Made by a program: the position numbers and the translations under genes. This document shows positions 5,874 through 53,287 of a stretch of DNA of 57,096 nt, piece after piece. Position 1 is the stretch's first letter, and each line of letters opens with the position of its first letter. The notes beneath the pieces were generated by a model, which had not been told where the DNA came from, searched no databases, and was given only the letters and a program-made list of their open reading frames with translations. Origin of the DNA: Acidobacteriota bacterium (GTDB lineage: Bacteria; Acidobacteriota; UBA6911; JACQSX01); NCBI GenBank assembly GCA_036507075.1, contig DASXQR010000132.1:1-57096 (forward strand), in the 5' to 3' direction.

Positions 5874-8800
5874 TCACCACTCAAAACGCAACTGCATCTG
5901 CATGCGCCGGCTGTTGGTCTTTTCCGGGTTCCATTCCGGCACCGCCACAAGTTGTCCCGCATCCGGCGATGTGATGTCGTTCACCGGAGGCACAAAATGG
6001 GGATGGTTGAAGATGTTGGAGATTCCCGCGTTGTATGTCAGCGAGTAGCGCTCCCGTATCTGGAAGGTCTTTACCAGCGCCAGGTGGTGAACATTCAAGC
6101 CGGGCCCCTGGAGCACATTGACCCCGCTGTTTCCAAATCTTCCCTTGGGCGGCTCCTTGAACGCTGCTTTATCAAACCACCGATCCACACCGCGCTGGCC
6201 GCGGGACAAATTGCCGTCACCGACCTGGTCCGGAAGGCCGCCGAAGGTGTTTGTATTGGAGGGATCCGAACCGGAAAACGCGGGCGAAAAGTAGGCGCCG
6301 GTCGCGAAAAAGCTCATCGTCTGAAGCTTCCACCCTCCCAGGATTTGATCGACGATGCCGGGCGCGTCAGACAGATAACGCCGGCCCCGGCCGAACGGAA
6401 GCTCGATGATGGACGTGACAACGGCGCGCTGTCGCTGTGTGAAGTCGTCGCGATTCCAGTTGTTTGTGACGTCATACGGGTTTTCGGTATTTAAGAAGTT
6501 GTGCAGGTTGCAAGCCAGAGTGTAATTTGCGTTGAACGTGATCAGACCCATTCTGCGCTTTGCTTCCAGTTGCAGCGCGTCGTATTTGGATTCGCCGTCT
6601 TCCCGGATAAATGTCGCGCCCACAAATTGTGGAAAAGGCCGCCGGTCCTGGGTGAAAGGCGTCAAACTGGGTCGCGGTTTGTTCAGATTGAGCGAATAGT
6701 TCAAGCCGCGGCTGCGCGAGCCGACATAAGAGACGCGAAATCCCAGGTCAGCAACCTCTTTCTCCACGCTCAGATTGAACTGATGGATGACTCCGTTCCT
6801 GGTCTTGATCGGATAACCGGAGACACTCTGTGAAGGAATCGCCGCCAGAGCGAGGTTGGCCGGAAACGGTTCCGGGAATGCAAACAGCGGACTCCCGCCT
6901 TCGATCCGGTTTGTGTAGCTCTCGCTGATCTGGAACGGTCCCCCGCCTTGGAGCCGGCTGAAGGGATCCAGCCGCTCCGTGTAGAGGCCGTAGCCGCCGC
7001 GGATCACCAGATCCTCGCGCAGGCGGTAAGCGAAACCAAATCGTGGACGAAAATCGTTCTTTGCCTCCTCGGGCACAACGTTGCCGGGCACGATCTTGAT
7101 GGTTTTGGGGAAAAGAGGACTGACGCGCGAGAGCGCGGCCTGGGGCACAATTACGTTTCCTGTCTGTGGATCCCAGTTGAGCTGCAGGCCGTCATCGAAA
7201 GTCGGCGAAATGAAGTAGTCCCACCGCAGACCATAGTCGATGTTCAATCTCTGGCTTACCTTGAACGTGTCCATCGCATACAGAGCCAGCTCGCCCGCCC
7301 TGCGCCAGCGGTCCAGGAGAGGATCCAGCCGCACGCTGGTGCGCGGGATGCCCAGCAGGAAATCGGCATAGCCGATTCCTGTAAAGGATCCGTTAAAGCT
7401 AAAACGGCCGTACGTGCCTTCCTCAATCACGGATCTGAAGCTGTTGAACTTGTTGTACTGCACGCCGAACTTCCAAACGTGGCGATCCTTCGACCAGGTG
7501 AGCGAGTCTTCATACGAAAAATCATACTCGTCATTGACCGTTCCGCCTGGTATTGCACGCAGGCTCGTCAGGCTGGTCACTCCGGAGAAATCCATCCTCG
7601 GGAATCCCATCGCGCTCAGGCCCTTCGGATTGACTCCCTTCAAGCCGATTTTGGAAACCGCTTCGTCTCCTTTTGGCGGCGTGAAATTGTCCACGGTGAT
7701 TCCGTCGCGCACCTTGTTGCCATTGAATCCGAAACGGAACGTGTTCACGATGACGGGCGAGAACACATGCGTATCCGACAGCACGCCTTTATCGTGATAT
7801 CGCGTCCTGGTACGCGCGAAAGCAGGCAGCAGATTGGCCAGAACATACGGAGACCAGTAATATTGATATCTGAAGAACAACGAGTTGCTCTTGGTCAGGT
7901 TGTGATCCACCCGAAACAACGGATAGTCAGCCAGAAAGTAGTCATCGGGGTACGGGAAATTGAACCCGAAATTGTTGCTGAACTTGTCCGGCCCTCCCAG
8001 ATTGGGCGTGGGAAAGTAAATCTCCTGAACCTTGCGGGACGTCTCGTTCTGACGATTCGCCGGAATGATATTGTTGGGAAAGGCTTGTCCGGTCAGCGGA
8101 TCGACAATCGTTCTGGAGAATTGCGAGAAATCTCCCTGCCGCATTTTCAGCGTCGGCACGCTGGCCAGAATGAAAGAACCGGCAGGCACACGGATGTGCG
8201 TCCAACCTATATAGAAGAAAGTCTTGTCCTTGATAATTGGCCCGCCCGCGTCCGCGTAAAAATCATGAAATTTGTAGTGTGTTTTCTCCGGATCAAAGAA
8301 GCTCTTCGCTCCCAGAGCGGAGTTCGTATGCTTGTAATATGCCATGCCATGCCAGGCATTGGTGCCGTGTTTGGAGGTGGCATTAAAACTGGCGGCACGG
8401 GACTGATCGGCCGTGTTGTTGACCGTGACGACCTTGACCTCATCGTAGGTGTAAATATTCACCGACTGATTCCCGGAGCGGTCATTCTGGACTCCGTCAT
8501 CCTGCGCCGATATTTGGGTGCTCCTCTGGCCTGAGATCGTGACATTCCACCCGGCTCCCTGCACCCCTGGCAATGTGGTGAGCAGCCCAAGGGGGCCAGG
8601 GTAGGGCGATTCGGTGTCCACCTGCGGCACATCTTTGAACTGGTCGGCGGTAATGGCTCCCGCGATTGTGCCGCCTTCGGTGCTGATGAGCGCTGCGCCC
8701 GCCTCTACGGTAACGTGCTCGGTAGCCTCGCCCACCTGCATCACCGCGTCGATGCGCCGCGCCTGCCCGCTTTCCAGCGCGATGTTATCAGCCACAAATG

Positions 8801-11774: not shown

Positions 11775-13426
11775 AGGGCGTCTCAGTTGCAATCGGATGC
11801 CTGCTTGCACCCGTTTTTCTCTACCAATCCCCATCCCCCGGCCCTCGGGTGCGGTTCGTGGACGTGGCGTCGCAGTCGGGAATCACATTCAAGCATGAGA
11901 ATGGCGCCTCAAAAAACAAGCTGCTGCCGGAAACATTCGGCTCCGGCGTCGCATGGCTGGACTACGACAACGACGGCCTGCTCGATTTGTACTTCATAAA
12001 CGGCGCCGATCTTTCACAGGGAAAAGCATCGCCGGGAAATGTTCTATACCGCAACGTGGGTGGCGGAAAATTCGTCGACGCTACCGCCAGGGCCGGTACC
12101 GGCGGCCATGGCGCTTTCGGAACGGGAGTCGCCGTGGGAGATTACGACAACGACGGATTTGTTGACCTGTACGTGACGAACTTTGGCGCTAATATTTTGT
12201 ATCACAACAACGGCAACGGCACATTCACGGACGTGACTGCCAAAGCGGGAGTGAGCGGCGGCGGCTGGAGCAGCAGCGCCGGATTTTTCGATTTCGATCG
12301 CGACGGCAGGCTGGATTTGTTCGTAGCGAAATACCTGGATTACAACATTGACGACAATCCGTACTGCGGATTTGAAAGAGAAGGATATCGGATGTACTGC
12401 GATCCGCGGCTGTTTGACGGAGTTCCGAACCAGCTTTTCAGGAATAAAGGGGACGGCACCTTTGAAGACGTATCGAAGCCGGCTGGTATTGCCAATCCCG
12501 CGGGCAAAGGATTGGGCGTTGCTTTCGGAGATTTTGATCTGGATGGCTACGTCGATGTCTACGTAGCCAACGACGGCGTCCGCAATTTCCTGTATCGAAA
12601 CAGCGGCAACGGCACTTTTGTCGATCTGGCCTACAGCGCCGGCGTCGGTTTCGACGGACACGGGAAACCGCAAGCGGGAATGGGGACGGAGTTTGGGGAC
12701 TACGACGGCGACGGGCTGCCCGACATATTCGTCACGAATTTCTCAGAGGAGCTCAACACCCTGTACCGCAATCTGGGAAATCTGGCGTTTGAAGATATAA
12801 CCGAACAGGCCGGTTTGAGTTCTGGCTTCCTGCCGCTTGGATTTGGAACAAAGCTGTTTGACTTCGACAATGATGGAGATCTGGATATTTACGTTACCAA
12901 TGGACACGTGATCGACAACATCGCGTTATATAACAGCCGGCTTTCTTACGCCCAGAAGGATCTGCTTTACCGGAACACGGGAGGGCGCTTTCGAGACGTG
13001 TCTGCGGAAAGCGGTTCCGCCTTTCAAATCGAGCATGTAGGGCGGGGAGCCGCCGTGGGCGATTTCGACAATGACGGGGACTTGGATATTGTTGTGTCCA
13101 ATTGCGGCCAGCGCCCTATTTTGATGAGAAATGATGGCGGAAGCCAGAACCATTGGATCGCCATCAGGGCACGCGGCAGAGAAAGCAATTCCTTCGGTCT
13201 GGGTTCCAAGGTCCGTGTTGAAACCAACAGCAGAGTACAGTCAAAAGAAATCAATAATGCAGGAAGTTACCTGAGCAGCAGCGATATCCGACTGTATTTC
13301 GGTCTCGGGCGTGAATCCAGGGTTAAGCGAATTGAAATCCTGTGGCCCAGCGGAAAACGACAGTCGTTAACGGACGTAGCTGCGGATCAGTGGCTGCAAC
13401 TGGACGAAGCACGAGCCGAACGATGA
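11771..13426 (+). CDS. CRTAC1-family FG-GAP repeat protein with ASPIC/UnbV domain
   Basis: Repeated DYDNDG/DFDNDG motifs; GSYLSSSDIRLYFGLG...IEILWPSG; GTG start overlaps the upstream stop (GTGA). Confidence 0.9.
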   Translation: MKGVSVAIGCLLAPVFLYQSPSPGPRVRFVDVASQSGITFKHENGASKNKLLPETFGSGVAWLDYDNDGLLDLYFINGADLSQGKASPGNVLYRNVGGGKFVDATARAGTGGHGAFGTGVAVGDYDNDGFVDLYVTNFGANILYHNNGNGTFTDVTAKAGVSGGGWSSSAGFFDFDRDGRLDLFVAKYLDYNIDDNPYCGFEREGYRMYCDPRLFDGVPNQLFRNKGDGTFEDVSKPAGIANPAGKGLGVAFGDFDLDGYVDVYVANDGVRNFLYRNSGNGTFVDLAYSAGVGFDGHGKPQAGMGTEFGDYDGDGLPDIFVTNFSEELNTLYRNLGNLAFEDITEQAGLSSGFLPLGFGTKLFDFDNDGDLDIYVTNGHVIDNIALYNSRLSYAQKDLLYRNTGGRFRDVSAESGSAFQIEHVGRGAAVGDFDNDGDLDIVVSNCGQRPILMRNDGGSQNHWIAIRARGRESNSFGLGSKVRVETNSRVQSKEINNAGSYLSSSDIRLYFGLGRESRVKRIEILWPSGKRQSLTDVAADQWLQLDEARAER

Positions 13427-27217: not shown

Positions 27218-27340
27218 AAGGCTAAGGCTTTGTCTAAAGAGCCTGCCTCGCTGCCAAACGTCGGAACCACGCCTGGATTGCTTGCGTTTTGCATAGCAAA
27301 ATGTTAAATCGAATCATTTCCAGAGGATGACCGAGGTATT

Positions 27341-27462
27341 CACCGCGAAGGCGCGAAGACGCGAAGGGTTTCGATCGACAGCATCGATCGGTTGATGGAA
27401 GCTAATCATCGCCGCCCTGTTTGAGTCAGCCGAGGCTTTCGCGTCTTCGCGCCTTCGCGGTT
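27341..27462. repeat. ACCGCGAAGGCGCGAAGACGCGAAG inverted repeat
   Basis: Arms about 27341-27366 and 27437-27462; same periodic style as the CACAAAG family. Confidence 0.8.
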
Positions 27463-27487
27463 CGGTTTTTTTGGAGCAGGGCCATCA

Positions 27488-28621
27488 ATGGGCACTTCAC
27501 GCAGCCGCTACATCATAAAGTCCCTGGTTCACGCGTCCCAGGTGTTGTCTGCCTTCGAGAACCCGGGAGAGGTTCTGCGCCTGCGAGATGTGGTTTCAAG
27601 GACTGGGTTGAACAAGGGAATGTGTTTCCGGCTCCTGTACACTCTTCACGAGTGCGGATTTCTCGAGAAGGTTGGTCAAAACAGCTATCGTTTGATTTCG
27701 GAAATACATCGCCGGCGGAGATATCGGATCGGCTACGGGGCACAGGGCCAGGACAGTTCATTCCCGCGTGAAGTTCATGCCGGGTTGGTCCGGGCCGCAG
27801 AGAGAGAGCAGGTGGAGCTGATCGTGGTCGACAACCGTTATCAGCCGAAGATCGCGCTGCGGAATGCCGATCATCTGATTCACGAACAGGTAGATCTGGT
27901 CATCGAGTTTCAAACCGACGAGGCGATCGCGCCCGCCATCGCCTCAAAGTATCTGGAAGCGCACCTGCCTTTCATCGCGATCGATATACCCCATCCCGGC
28001 GCGACTTACTTTGGCGCTAACAATTACGAAGCGGGGCTGATCGGAGGGCGACACCTGGGACGCTGGGCAAGAAAGATTTGGGATGGAGCGGTCGACGAAA
28101 TCCTCATGATCGAGCTGGCACGGGCAGGCTCCATCCCCCAGGCGCGCATTCGCGGAATGCTTGCCGGCATTCATGAAATAGTTCATGGATCTGAATCCTG
28201 TCCCGCGGTTCATATTGATGGCGACGGGCAATTCAAGGCCGCCCTGGAGCGGGTGCGGAAGCATCTGCGCGAGACCCAGGCGAAGCGAATTCTGGTTGGC
28301 GCGGCAAATGACCCGAGCGCGCTCGGGACACTGCGGGCATTTCAAGAGGCCGGCCGTCCGGCTGATTGCGCCGTGGTGGGGCAGAATGCCGAACCGGAGG
28401 GCCGTGCCGAGCTTCGAACTCCGCGCACCCGTCTGATCGGCTCGGTAGGATATTTTCCGGAAAAGTATGGTGACGGTTTGATGCGCCTTGCTTTGGATAT
28501 GCTGGCAGGCAAGGTCGTCCCGCCGGCAGTGTTCATCAAACACCATCTCATTACGCCTGAAAACGTGAACCACTTCTACCCGAACGACAGCCTGCTTGCC
28601 GTGGGAGCCGGCGCAGTGTGA
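27488..28621 (+). CDS. Transcriptional regulator: IclR-type HTH fused to RbsB/LacI-type sugar-binding domain
   Basis: YIIKSLVHASQVLSAF...LRLRDVVSRTGLNKGMCFRLLYTL HTH; then IAIDIP, YFGANNYEAG, ANDPSALG; divergent from rhaI. Confidence 0.85.
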   Translation: MGTSRSRYIIKSLVHASQVLSAFENPGEVLRLRDVVSRTGLNKGMCFRLLYTLHECGFLEKVGQNSYRLISEIHRRRRYRIGYGAQGQDSSFPREVHAGLVRAAEREQVELIVVDNRYQPKIALRNADHLIHEQVDLVIEFQTDEAIAPAIASKYLEAHLPFIAIDIPHPGATYFGANNYEAGLIGGRHLGRWARKIWDGAVDEILMIELARAGSIPQARIRGMLAGIHEIVHGSESCPAVHIDGDGQFKAALERVRKHLRETQAKRILVGAANDPSALGTLRAFQEAGRPADCAVVGQNAEPEGRAELRTPRTRLIGSVGYFPEKYGDGLMRLALDMLAGKVVPPAVFIKHHLITPENVNHFYPNDSLLAVGAGAV

Positions 28622-40307: not shown

Positions 40308-40394
40308 TTCTAACGATAGGCATCAGCCGCGTGCCCAAGACAAAGTTGCGATCGCAGAACAGTTGCGGCACGTCGGCTGCATGCTGTGGTAGGC
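40308..40394 (-). other. attC-like site
   Basis: TTCTAACGATAGGCATCAGCCGCG...CGTCGGCTGCATGCTGTGGTAGGC; imperfect palindrome with bulged bases. Confidence 0.7.
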
Positions 40395-50682: not shown

Positions 50683-50737
50683 GCCTAACGATAGGCATCA
50701 GCCGCGCGCGCAAGACAATCTTTGCGATGTGTTATGC
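50683..50737 (-). other. attC-like site, internally deleted
   Basis: Matches the 40308 copy up to TTGCGAT, then jumps to GTTATGC. Confidence 0.65.
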
Positions 50738-50767
50738 GTCGTGCGCGCCGCCACCATCCTCTGCTTC

Positions 50768-51157: not shown

Positions 51158-51310
51158 TCCGGCCCCTTCGCCTGTGAGTAAGCTTTTCAATACGTCCAAG
51201 TCATCTGAGTCAGTCTGAATGAATAAGTTACCGTGCGCCATGAAATAAATCCGCCCGTTGGCATTTCTTTTGCAAATGAAAGGCGGGCAGGCACAAGGCG
51301 TCCCAGGTCT

Positions 51311-51547
51311 TCAGATTGGTGCACCGAAGGCGATTGGTAGGCCCGGACGAGAAACGAATACGTCCCAAACTCGCCCACATCCGCCGCCGCACATTAAGCC
51401 GCGGGCTTCGATGGCTTCGCCAATGAAAATATCCCAAAATTGCTCGAGCCGAGCGTCGTCGAGTCCCTCAGATAGTTGGAATCTGACCTCGAATCCAAAT
51501 TCGCAAAACTCGCCGCGGTGCAGCTTTTTACGAAGTCTCTTTTTCAT
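51311..51547 (-). pseudogene. YggL (DUF469) family protein, C-terminally truncated cassette
   Basis: KKRLRKKLHRGEF.EFGF..AIEARGL.CGGG; ends early. Confidence 0.7.
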
Positions 51548-51574
51548 TCCTGTTTGTAATATGCACCCTCTGCA

Positions 51575-51650
51575 GCCTAAGCATAGGCATCAGCCGCGGT
51601 CAAGCGGCGGGGACAAGCAGTGGCGCGTCGGCTGGATGCCGTGGTTGAAC
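51575..51650 (-). other. attC site whose inverse core (GTTCAAC on minus strand) is the element's left inverted repeat
   Basis: GCCTAAGCATAGGCATCAGCCGCG...CGCGTCGGCTGGATGCCGTGGTTGAAC. Confidence 0.7.
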
Positions 51651-52192
51651 TAAATCCGCCTGCGGCGGATAGATAAAAACCCTCGGCCGATCGTTTTCTT
51701 TTTCAGATTCACATTAATCTGTAGTGGGACTCAGTATTCCTTTCCAGGGAGCAATGCCGCCCCCCGGAAAGGAGATACTGTATGACACCGTTACGTCAAC
51801 GGATGATTGAGGATATGCAATTGAGGGGGTTTTCGGCAAGAACTCAAGAATGCTATGCGGCCGCTGTGGGCCAACTGGCAAAACATTATCATTGCAGCCC
51901 GGACCAACCAGGCGTTTTTATTCCCAGTCCATGTGCTGTCGGTCATTTTTCGCGCCCAGCGCACTGCTCTGTCTGGCGCGCGCTCTTGCAGCCGCGTTCA
52001 CCTGCTCGTGTGTCTACAATCGTGTATTTGGATGGTTTCAGGAGGCTACTTCACGTTACCGACTGCCGTTCGTGTGGTTTCACCCATTCACGCACGCTCT
52101 TCTTTGCGCAACACCAGCTGACTGGTTCTGCTCGAAAGCGCATTGAAATTCCAAACACCTGCCCACCAGCCCACCCCGGGATTTAGTTCAAC
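51644..52192 (+). mobile_element. Internally deleted tyrosine-recombinase + IS91-like transposase element
   Basis: 14-bp inverted repeats GTTGAACTAAATCC (51644) and GGATTTAGTTCAAC (52179); integrase N-terminus MTPLRQRMIEDMQLRG..SPDQ (51782-51907) fused to an IS91-like fragment FLFPVHVLSVIFRA. Confidence 0.75.
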
Positions 52193-52276
52193 CCAGGATT
52201 TTGTCGCGGCTTACCAGTCGGAACTTTGTCATATCCTGCCGACTCACGCGCGACAAGAATCCTTAATTTGTTCGGT
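52186..52276 (-). other. attC site, subfamily 2
   Basis: Minus strand ACCGAAC ... GTTGAAC; AGGATTTTGTCGCG pairs with CGCGACAAGAATCCT with one extrahelical base. Confidence 0.7.
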
Positions 52277-52280
52277 GGCG

Positions 52281-52520
52281 TTATTTGGCAGCGAATTCGG
52301 GCCGCGCGTACGACTCAAGGAATCCGCAGCCCGAACAGCGGAAGGTGCCCACGGGAATGCACTTGTCGGTAGGCACTTTTGTCACGGACCAGAAGGCCTT
52401 CTCCGGTGCTCCCTCGACCCAGTTGATGACCAGGCGCCCCCCTCCTGCGTGGAAATCGACGATGAACCCCTGAACCATTTCGCTCTTGCACCTGGGACAT
52501 CCAGTCTTTGCCTCGCTCAT
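52281..52520 (-). CDS. Small zinc-ribbon-like protein (DUF6487-like), gene cassette
   Basis: CPRCKSEMVQGF...RCSGCGFLESYA; GGAGG RBS. Confidence 0.78.
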   Translation of the reverse strand: MSEAKTGCPRCKSEMVQGFIVDFHAGGGRLVINWVEGAPEKAFWSVTKVPTDKCIPVGTFRCSGCGFLESYARPEFAAK

Positions 52521-52742
52521 GCTTGAACCTCCGAAAAAGGAATTGGAGTAAGTCGCTGTCCACCGCCGAGCTTCTGTTTATGTGGTTTCCAGGTAAACCC
52601 GCTTCCTGGTTTCACTTCCAGATAACATGGCCCAGCGGATTCCGCATAAGCCGTTTCTTACCCACTGGTCAGAGTTGTCTTTACGATATCAACCGTTTGC
52701 GCCGGCGTTCTCCAACCTGGAATACACCAGCCGATGCACTCA

Positions 52743-52840
52743 GGATTTAGTTCAACCCAGGATTTTGTCGCGGCTCACCACTCGGTCCTGTGTCCCATAC
52801 TGCGGTACCGCGCGCGACAACAATCCTTAATTCGTTAGGC
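52743..52840 (-). other. Second element end (GGATTTAGTTCAAC) fused to a subfamily-2 attC
   Basis: Near copy of 52179-52276; minus strand GCCTAAC ... GTTGAAC. Confidence 0.72.
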
Positions 52841-53016: not shown

Positions 53017-53105
53017 GCCTAACGCCCGGCATCAGCCGCGCGCCAAGAAATGTAGCGATCCAAGGGAACCGCGATGGCGTGTCGGCTGCATGCCGATTGT
53101 TAGCT
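53017..53105 (-). other. attC site
   Basis: GCCTAACGCCCGGCATCAGCCGCG...GTCGGCTGCATGCCGATTGTTAGCT. Confidence 0.75.
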
Positions 53106-53192: not shown

Positions 53193-53287
53193 GTCGCCCC
53201 TGCCGGGGCTCAGAACTTTTTATGTTCCACCAACCCAGGGCGGCGCTTCGCTTGCCCTGGGCTACTTTCTTTCGTCCCTTCGGGACT
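53193..53287. repeat. CGCCCCT-GGGGCT / CCCAGGG-CCCTGGG REP-like cluster
   Basis: Three short hairpins downstream of the receptor gene. Confidence 0.6.

Follow-up and report, generated by a model that had tools for sequence, protein, structure and literature searches.

We find that the 57,096-nt contig DASXQR010000132.1 of an Acidobacteriota bacterium (assembly GCA_036507075.1), below called the window, carries at 51644–52270 the remnant of an insertion sequence (IS) related to the IS91 family, lying among integron-type gene cassettes and their attC sites. The 14-bp sequence GGATTTAGTTCAAC occurs three times in the window, where 0.21 occurrences are expected, and none of 100 shuffles gave three. 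One copy is on the minus strand at 51644–51657, where the plus strand reads GTTGAACTAAATCC, and two are on the plus strand, at 52179–52192 and 52743–52756. The repeat search returned the copies at 51644 and 52179 as inverted-repeat arms of 15 nt, 100% complementary and spaced by 521 nt, and the unit between the perfect inverted repeats measures 549 bp (51644–52192).

Within this unit, an open reading frame (ORF) at 51782 has a Phage_int_SAM_4 match confined to residues 4–42. Another contig of the same genome (C81) encodes a full 289-aa integrase, with which it shares 95% identity over 42 aa. A fragment of an IS91 transposase at about 51903–52031 corresponds by tblastn to residues ~186–221 of the transposases of relatives, with matches of 68% over 19 aa (E 1e-4) and 62% over 26 aa (E 2e-4). 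The right 176 bp of the remnant share 81% identity with another remnant on contig C46, and the left 265 bp, the transposase piece and the right 176 bp all map onto full copies of the element. The initial annotation of this DNA had seen here a 549-bp remnant with integrase and IS91 sequence bounded by perfect 14-bp inverted repeats, and the domain, blast and repeat searches agree in finding it. By comparison with the full copies, the remnant consists of a left end, 42 integrase codons, about 40 transposase codons and a right non-coding end, with two internal deletions. The copy at 51644–52270 has lost both genes and is dead; it could be mobilised only by an intact copy working on its ends (Table 1).

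Table 1. Features of the remnant and its surroundings in the window.
Feature	Position	Strand	Basis
Resident attC that served as target, of the type common in this genome, lacking its R'' box	51575–51644	-	pattern match and fold
Left terminal inverted repeat (IR-L), GTTGAACTAAATCC	51644–51657	+	69 of 80 relatives with a recognisable left terminus
Left subterminal palindrome, ATCCGCC-TGC-GGCGGAT	51654–51670	+	read from the sequence; position of the IS91-family terIS palindrome
First 42 codons of an IntI-like tyrosine recombinase gene, remainder deleted	51782–51907	+	protein and domain matches
Internal fragment of an IS91-family (Y2 HUH) transposase, residues ~186–221, in a frame different from that of the integrase piece	51903–52031	+	tblastn
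Right-end non-coding region of the element	52017–52178	+	81% identity to the C46 remnant
Right, subterminal inverted repeat (IR-R), GGATTTAGTTCAAC	52179–52192	+	repeat searches, relatives
Terminal hairpin of the element itself (B1), its true right end (oriIS-like)	52193–52270	+	folds, covariation in relatives
Second half of the target attC's split R'' box (ACCGAA on the top strand)	52271–52276	-	sequence; analogy with filled and empty sites of relatives
Cassette ORF (DUF6487, 79 aa) whose attC is split by the insertion	52281–52520	-	ORF list, domain match
Solo right end: IR-R 52743–52756 and hairpin B2	52743–52834	+	repeats, fold, alignment
Uninterrupted resident attC, boxes GCCTAAC / GTTAGCT, two bulges on the plus-strand 3′ arm	53017–53105	-	scan, fold

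Both plus-strand repeats are followed by the same hairpin of ~90 nt. The two versions are 83% identical over 100 nt, which bears out the earlier suggestion that a second right end at 52743 is joined to the same hairpin subfamily. In B1 the stem pairs 52195–52208 with 52249–52263 and has a bulged G at 52257, followed by the 3′ tail TAATTT and a last G at 52270. In B2 the stem spans 52759–52827, with a bulged C at 52821, the tail TAATTC and a G at 52834, after which comes the target half-box TTAGGC (52835–52840).

A search with the C81 integrase as query provided the relatives used here, 80 of 256 confirmed loci, whose metagenome-assembled genomes (MAGs) are labeled Acidobacteriota, Gemmatimonadota, Chloroflexota, Planctomycetota, Verrucomicrobiota, Bacteroidales and others, at least six phyla. 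A left terminus of TTGAAC with TAAATCC, TCAATCC or TAAGCGC stands before the integrase gene in 69 of the 80. The left end is made up of TTGAAC, 7 nt and a small palindrome, which is found in the same place in relatives and is swapped for GCGC-TTC-GCGC in a Chloroflexi subtype. An inverted copy of the left terminus follows 2.25–2.65 kb downstream in 41 relatives, and the full element is about 2.4–2.5 kb long; some of the complete copies are on contigs of 0.5–11 Mb. The hairpin comes directly after IR-R, and is itself followed by a 6–7-nt tail and NTT, in 39 of the 40 copies with enough downstream sequence; the exception (L076) has an apparently false right end. When 19 short-loop members were aligned, 94.3% of cells in the hairpin were paired, versus 36–51% with a slid partner. 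At 10 of the 15 hairpin pairs both partners have undergone compensatory changes, a level of covariation attained by 0 of 500 shuffles. From this pairing and covariation we conclude that the hairpin is part of the element and under structural selection. Both ends are conserved, the left as a small palindrome and the right as a large hairpin, yet the right end also has the 13–14-bp left terminus in inverted form inside it. In two relatives (L010 at ~8323–8350 and L017 at ~8356–8385) the 3′ half of the hairpin, the tail and GTT are duplicated in tandem, a pattern suggestive of slippage or of double use of the right end.

The boundaries can be read from four identical copies in one Gemmatimonadaceae MAG (L018–L021). 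They are inserted at different attC sites. Their left flanks are unrelated up to ...G|TTGAAC, and on the right they stay the same past the hairpin, as far as ...GTTAG, and then diverge. In the same arrays and on the same strand, unoccupied attC sites read ...CTGCAA, 5–6 nt, GTTAGGC, and occupied ones read ...CTGCAA, 6 nt, GTT|GAAC...element...hairpin...GTT|AGGC. Only GTT is common to the two junctions, and no longer repeat was found at them, i.e. the insertion is without target duplication. On the strength of this comparison of filled and empty sites in the arrays of relatives, we place the insertion in the box adjoining the bulged arm (GTTAGGC), at its GTT. In the window the element starts with TTGAAC at 51645, or with the G before it, as the shared GTT leaves the cut ambiguous by at most 3 nt. 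The mobile unit accordingly extends from TTGAAC to the last G of the hairpin, and the insertion point is the R'' box, between a cassette ORF and its attC, in mirror image to the position cut by IntI. The genes of the element are always antisense to the cassettes. At the window copy, the stop codon of the DUF6487 ORF (52281–52283) is 4 nt from the split half-box at 52271–52276, and the other part of the attC of this cassette, 51575–51644, lies beyond the remnant.

This changes several points of the initial annotation. The sequence to the right, which it took for a subfamily of resident attC sites, is instead the element's own hairpin, as it is conserved and covaries across phyla and is identical among identical copies with differing flanks. 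The 14-bp repeats do not bound the element either, since the right repeat is subterminal and the hairpin lies outside it. On the right, no resident attC is completed by the inverted repeat; the left flank is a hairpin of the attC type common in this genome. The insertion lies at the R'' box, which is not where IntI recombines. What holds is the cassette format, with a TTGAAC start and, on the coding strand, a hairpin and then G|TT at the end. We also considered a boundary TAAATCC...GGATTTA with GTTC as a classical IS91 target, and rejected it because the hairpin travels with the element. Among relatives the left end has the form NTTG, and the right flank is NTTN, most often GTTA, GTTG or GTTC, which differs from GTTC/CTTG. 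Rare first bases other than G agree on both sides: C/C in L037 and L060, T/T in L072 and L073, and A/A in L074.

Hairpins of the resident type are found in the window at 53017–53105 (complete), at 51575–51644 (beside the remnant), at 40308 (degenerate) and at 50683 (truncated), and there are 15 clustered occurrences in the genome. Since seven of them stand co-oriented on contig C10 (L093, 3494–12739) before an intI remnant ORF of 71 codons (12524–12739, plus strand), we take these hairpins to be the integron attC sites of the organism. The site at 51575–51644 is of the same type as the uninterrupted site at 53017–53105 and the seven on C10. Read on the plus strand, it has the 5′ box GCCTAAG, a 5′ arm, a loop, a 3′ arm with two single-base bulges and the junction G at 51644. 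In resident sites generally the two bulges of the plus-strand 3′ arm are six pairs apart. A canonical attC has its extra bases on the R''-L'' arm, and the plus strand of the window would thus be the 'bottom' strand of the resident attC, an assignment that leans partly on this canonical architecture. Three criteria agree on the polarity: the cassette ORFs (YggL-like, DUF6487, glyoxalase-like and a winged-helix fragment) are on the minus strand; the intI remnant on C10 is on the plus strand, at the expected start of the array; and on the coding strand of the element it is the 3′ arm that is bulged and longer. An Rfam scan gave no attC family match in the window, even at the clearest, textbook-like site. 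A strict attC scan and a bulge-plus-box detector each found only 53017–53105 in the window and are too strict for counting. MAFFT alignments of the left-flank attC sites, with their differing loop lengths, were misaligned, and a covariance model of our own was abandoned. The truncated site at 50683–50760 retains its 5′ box, 5′ arm and loop and is without the bulged 3′ arm and GTT box; it is truncated on the same side as the element insertions.

The left flanks of the relatives were compared with controls for an attC signature, defined as a hairpin ending at the junction with two single-base bulges 5–7 pairs apart on its 3′ arm. Sixty-three loci had a left flank of at least 135 nt, and 5040 control windows were taken from the same loci on both strands. 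The signature is present at the junction in 17 of the 63 flanks versus 70 of the 5040 controls (odds ratio 26, p 9e-17), which agrees with the idea in the initial annotation that intact relatives would be enriched next to attC-type hairpins. The rate is highest, 15/28, in the ATCC-type subtype, to which the window copy belongs. All 17 signature flanks share one polarity relative to the element, and in 11 a strict RYYYAAC box is found at the base of the hairpin. The 100-nt left flanks also fold with a mean energy of -18.6, versus -14.8 in controls (p 4e-4). Taken at the level of sequence, these flanks support the idea of attC targeting.

Intact relatives encode a transposase with Zn_Tnp_IS91 and Y2_Tnp domains, which in L020 scores 353 bits against NF033538, 'IS91 family transposase' (cut-off 125), and 36 of the 40 complete copies have its frame open for 360 aa or more. 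Their integrase has Phage_int_SAM_4 and Phage_integrase domains. The best NCBIfam match of this recombinase is the integron integrase TIGR02249, with 204 bits, under the cut-off of 265, and the match comes in two stretches that skip profile positions 181–215. Compared with an IntI fragment of the same genome on contig C29, ~31 residues are missing at the same place. Integron integrases read extrahelical bases with their IntI-specific domain. Because the recombinase is without this extra domain and scores below the cut-off, we call it IntI-like and not an IntI. The gene pair is also present in a cultured Chloroflexi strain, on plasmid pHAU01 of Herpetosiphon aurantiacus (L092, 2995–4991), where the two genes overlap by 4 bp and are annotated just as 'integrase family protein' and 'putative transposase'.

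We think it likely that 51644–52270 is an internally deleted, non-autonomous copy of an IS of the IS91 family which has a Y2-HUH transposase and an upstream IntI-like recombinase, and which inserts at attC. We suggest that the transposase would nick at the end of the hairpin and peel away one strand, which is then circularised, as in IS91. In the circle, the two terminal repeats would pair around the hairpin to form an attC look-alike with a cut site ^GTTG at its 3′ base, and a folded target attC would offer ^GTTA in an equivalent way, so that donor junction and target could be cut and joined at the GTT spot. Cutting would follow the IS91 rule, in that the left-end tetranucleotide resembles the tetranucleotide of the right flank. 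We hold loosely to HUH chemistry as the favored route, in which the recombinase would most likely provide attC recognition or one strand exchange. In models of the circle junction, the window copy and 35 of 36 relatives have IR-R paired with IR-L, with the hairpin enclosed between them. The fold begins with an outer box stem, continues through an internal loop (2-by-6) into an inner stem with a bulge, and ends in a loop that varies.

Several observations weigh against this interpretation. Only the 17 of 63 flanks pass the signature, with 2/30 in the Chloroflexi-type subtype, and L072, L073 and L037 lie in DNA without a visible hairpin; either attC targeting is limited to some clades, or the signature misses other attC types. 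When any terminal hairpin of at least 14 pairs was counted, the enrichment was not significant (29/63 versus 1720/5040 controls, p 0.06). The agreement of left and right first bases is broken in L050 and L083, which have A on the left and G on the right. The polarity argument rests partly on the canonical attC architecture. The shared GTT is compatible with cutting by the HUH enzyme (^GTT) as well as with crossover by the tyrosine recombinase (G|TT), and does not tell the two enzymes apart. No empty site and no circle junction was seen in the contigs of four soil metagenome runs, which cannot show rare forms. The assembly is without a complete transposase gene, which leaves an active copy in this genome hypothetical.

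The alternative that survives best, possible although we rate it as unlikely, is a self-mobilising cassette, in which the IntI-like recombinase alone recombines the attC look-alike on the opposite strand and the HUH enzyme supplies single strands or is a passenger. In its favor, the ends are R-box-like (GTTGAAC / GTTCAAC) and form part of a duplex stem; IntI-type enzymes cut at such places, and the usual substrate of HUH enzymes is unpaired DNA. The fold at the junction has an outer box stem, an asymmetric internal loop and a bulged inner stem, the top family match of the recombinase is the integron integrase, and the two genes stay intact together in most copies. However, the recombinase is without the IntI-specific domain, the end and target rule is that of IS91 relatives that have no recombinase, and the copies in hairpin-free DNA (L072, L073, L037) are difficult to place. 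A hybrid of the two mechanisms, which we regard as quite doubtful, would have the HUH transposase make a single-stranded circle whose attC look-alike is joined to the opposite strand of a resident attC by the IntI-like recombinase, which is without the domain that determines strand choice in IntI. Termination fails in 1–14% of events in IS91 relatives, and if it did so here the adjacent attC and downstream cassettes would be carried. If the hybrid were true, the element could shuttle cassettes between intI-less arrays, e.g. the decayed arrays of this genome, and its recombinase and hairpin could point to a lineage close to where integron integrases arose.

An ordinary gene cassette, moved by the host IntI at R' boxes and with the inverted repeat as the extended R''/R' stem of an attC, seems very improbable to us. 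Such a cassette would start, as this element does, with TTGAAC (TTRRRY) and end with a hairpin and G, and the GTTCAAC before the hairpin complements the start. But the bulge and the longer arm are 3′ on the coding strand, with which IntI would open the other box and the hairpin would come upstream of the integrase, an arrangement seen in 0 of 39 complete copies, and the target junction is at the box by the bulged arm (R''), not at R'. On the top strand, the cassette would own the left-hand attC, yet this attC varies among identical copies and also differs between the window and C81 copies. Two genes with an upstream region of their own, antisense to the array, do not fit a cassette either. Chance repeats, or a mis-join of repeated metagenomic sequence, can hardly be the explanation: the assembly is fragmented (233 contigs) and breaks at these repeats, and depth at the element ends is 8–40x baseline in the soil runs, but the shuffles never gave three repeat copies, 39 complete copies, independent of one another, repeat the architecture, some of them on 0.5–11 Mb contigs, and error-free contigs of baseline depth from two runs cover 51863–52208 (internal part and right repeat) and the left junction at 51300–51671.

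The element resembles IS91, IS801, IS1294 and IS1294b, as described in a 2026 study, in its Y2-HUH transposase, unlike palindromic ends, tetranucleotide rule and a gene upstream of tnpA. According to that study, IS91-family elements have unlike ends with subterminal palindromes and make no target duplication; the left-end tetranucleotide is GTTC in IS801 and IS1294; the target GTTC/CTTG flanks the right end, with the T conserved; a single-stranded circle is the functional intermediate; and in IS91 itself orf121 is located upstream of tnpA, its stop codon overlapping the tnpA start (PMC13181058). The 4-bp overlap of the two genes on the Herpetosiphon plasmid is comparable. The element described here differs in that its upstream gene encodes a 289-aa IntI-like tyrosine recombinase and not Orf121, and in that a 13–14-bp inverted left terminus is found just inside the right hairpin, which is not part of the description of canonical members in that study. 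Where those members use any GTTC/CTTG, the present element targets, in a single orientation, the GTT within one box of a folded attC, and its flanking tetranucleotide is mostly GTTA or GTTG. We regard the element as a probable subgroup of the IS91 family that has a recombinase, judging from its genes and ends. ISfinder entries of the IS91 family with an upstream integrase gene include ISShvi3, ISSod25, ISAzo26 and ISWz1. Entries of this kind have the same gene pair, and the paper on them reports finding no IS that interrupts an attC and gives no target rule, hairpin or polarity.

Two kinds of elements that home to attC sites have been described, IS1111-attC insertion sequences and group IIC-attC introns, and the element described here would be a third. 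Both are said to insert near the 5′ end of attC, between ORF and attC and antisense to the cassettes (PMC3001079). The IS1111-attC elements (ISPa21, ISPst6) and the introns thus have the same position and orientation as our element and resemble it as parasites of integrons. They use other chemistry, a DEDD transposase and a retro-homing ribozyme, respectively, in place of a HUH enzyme with a tyrosine recombinase, and they have no attC look-alike at their own end. The likeness to integron cassettes lies in the TTRRRY start, the bulged hairpin and G|TT end, and a recombinase nearest to TIGR02249. Here, however, the crossover is at R'' in donor and target, and the bulges are on the junction-side arm, the mirror of IntI; the recombinase does not have the IntI-specific insertion of ~31–35 residues, there is no attI or Pc, and two genes are antisense to the array. 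The openly searchable literature, which leaves subscription journals, ISfinder and TnPedia outside, yielded no account of IS91-type elements with a target rule at attC, or of the hairpin or the polarity. A third kind of attC-homing element, present in at least six phyla, would be of interest for research on integrons and on single-strand DNA transposition. As donor and target both seem to be used in the mirror sense of IntI, it would also offer a natural test of strand choice in attC recombination.

We read 52743–52834 as the solo right end of a second copy of the element. It adjoins a winged-helix ORF fragment, at what would be the R'' box of that cassette (GCCTAA|C, 52840–52834). Comparison of 52521–52742 with complete relatives by tblastn and blastn gave no match upstream of it, and a four-way alignment suggests that the element-derived sequence there is at most ~35–40 nt. 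The same variant of a solo right end is found on contig C152. By eye the hairpin looks like an attC, and solo ends such as 52743–52834 could inflate attC counts and create apparent cassettes in automatic annotation; they also mark places where cassettes have been separated from their own recombination sites. Remnants of the element are found in the assembly on C81 (the start), C46, C10 and C152, in addition to the two in the window. The C81 copy retains the start of Zn_Tnp_IS91, and is probably one intact copy that runs off its contig. A further remnant, with the C-terminus of the transposase, lies on C10 at 27296–27722. At 51241–51255 in the window, 14 of 15 positions of TGAAATAAATCCGCC agree with the left terminus and hairpin start of the element; the sequence coincides with the glyoxalase-like ORF's start codon, in a stretch without attC that separates two cassette ORFs, and may be another scar left by a copy of the element.

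The sequencing data used here are contigs from the four soil runs. They reproduce the arrangement of the window in pieces at baseline depth. Summed depth reaches 8–40x the baseline of the flanking cassettes at 51620–51683, 51748–51875, 52132–52259 and 52708–52771, i.e. at the element ends and the integrase start, and this high depth indicates many related copies in those soil communities. Hairpin variants with loops 33–37 nt shorter were seen as joints in the soil contigs, and the other listed joints are joins between repeated attC boxes with short sides. Just past the last attC of the window, 53234–53287 supports an Acidobacteriota-like origin of the DNA by matching the Acido-Lenti-1 RNA with 49.6 bits (gathering score 37).

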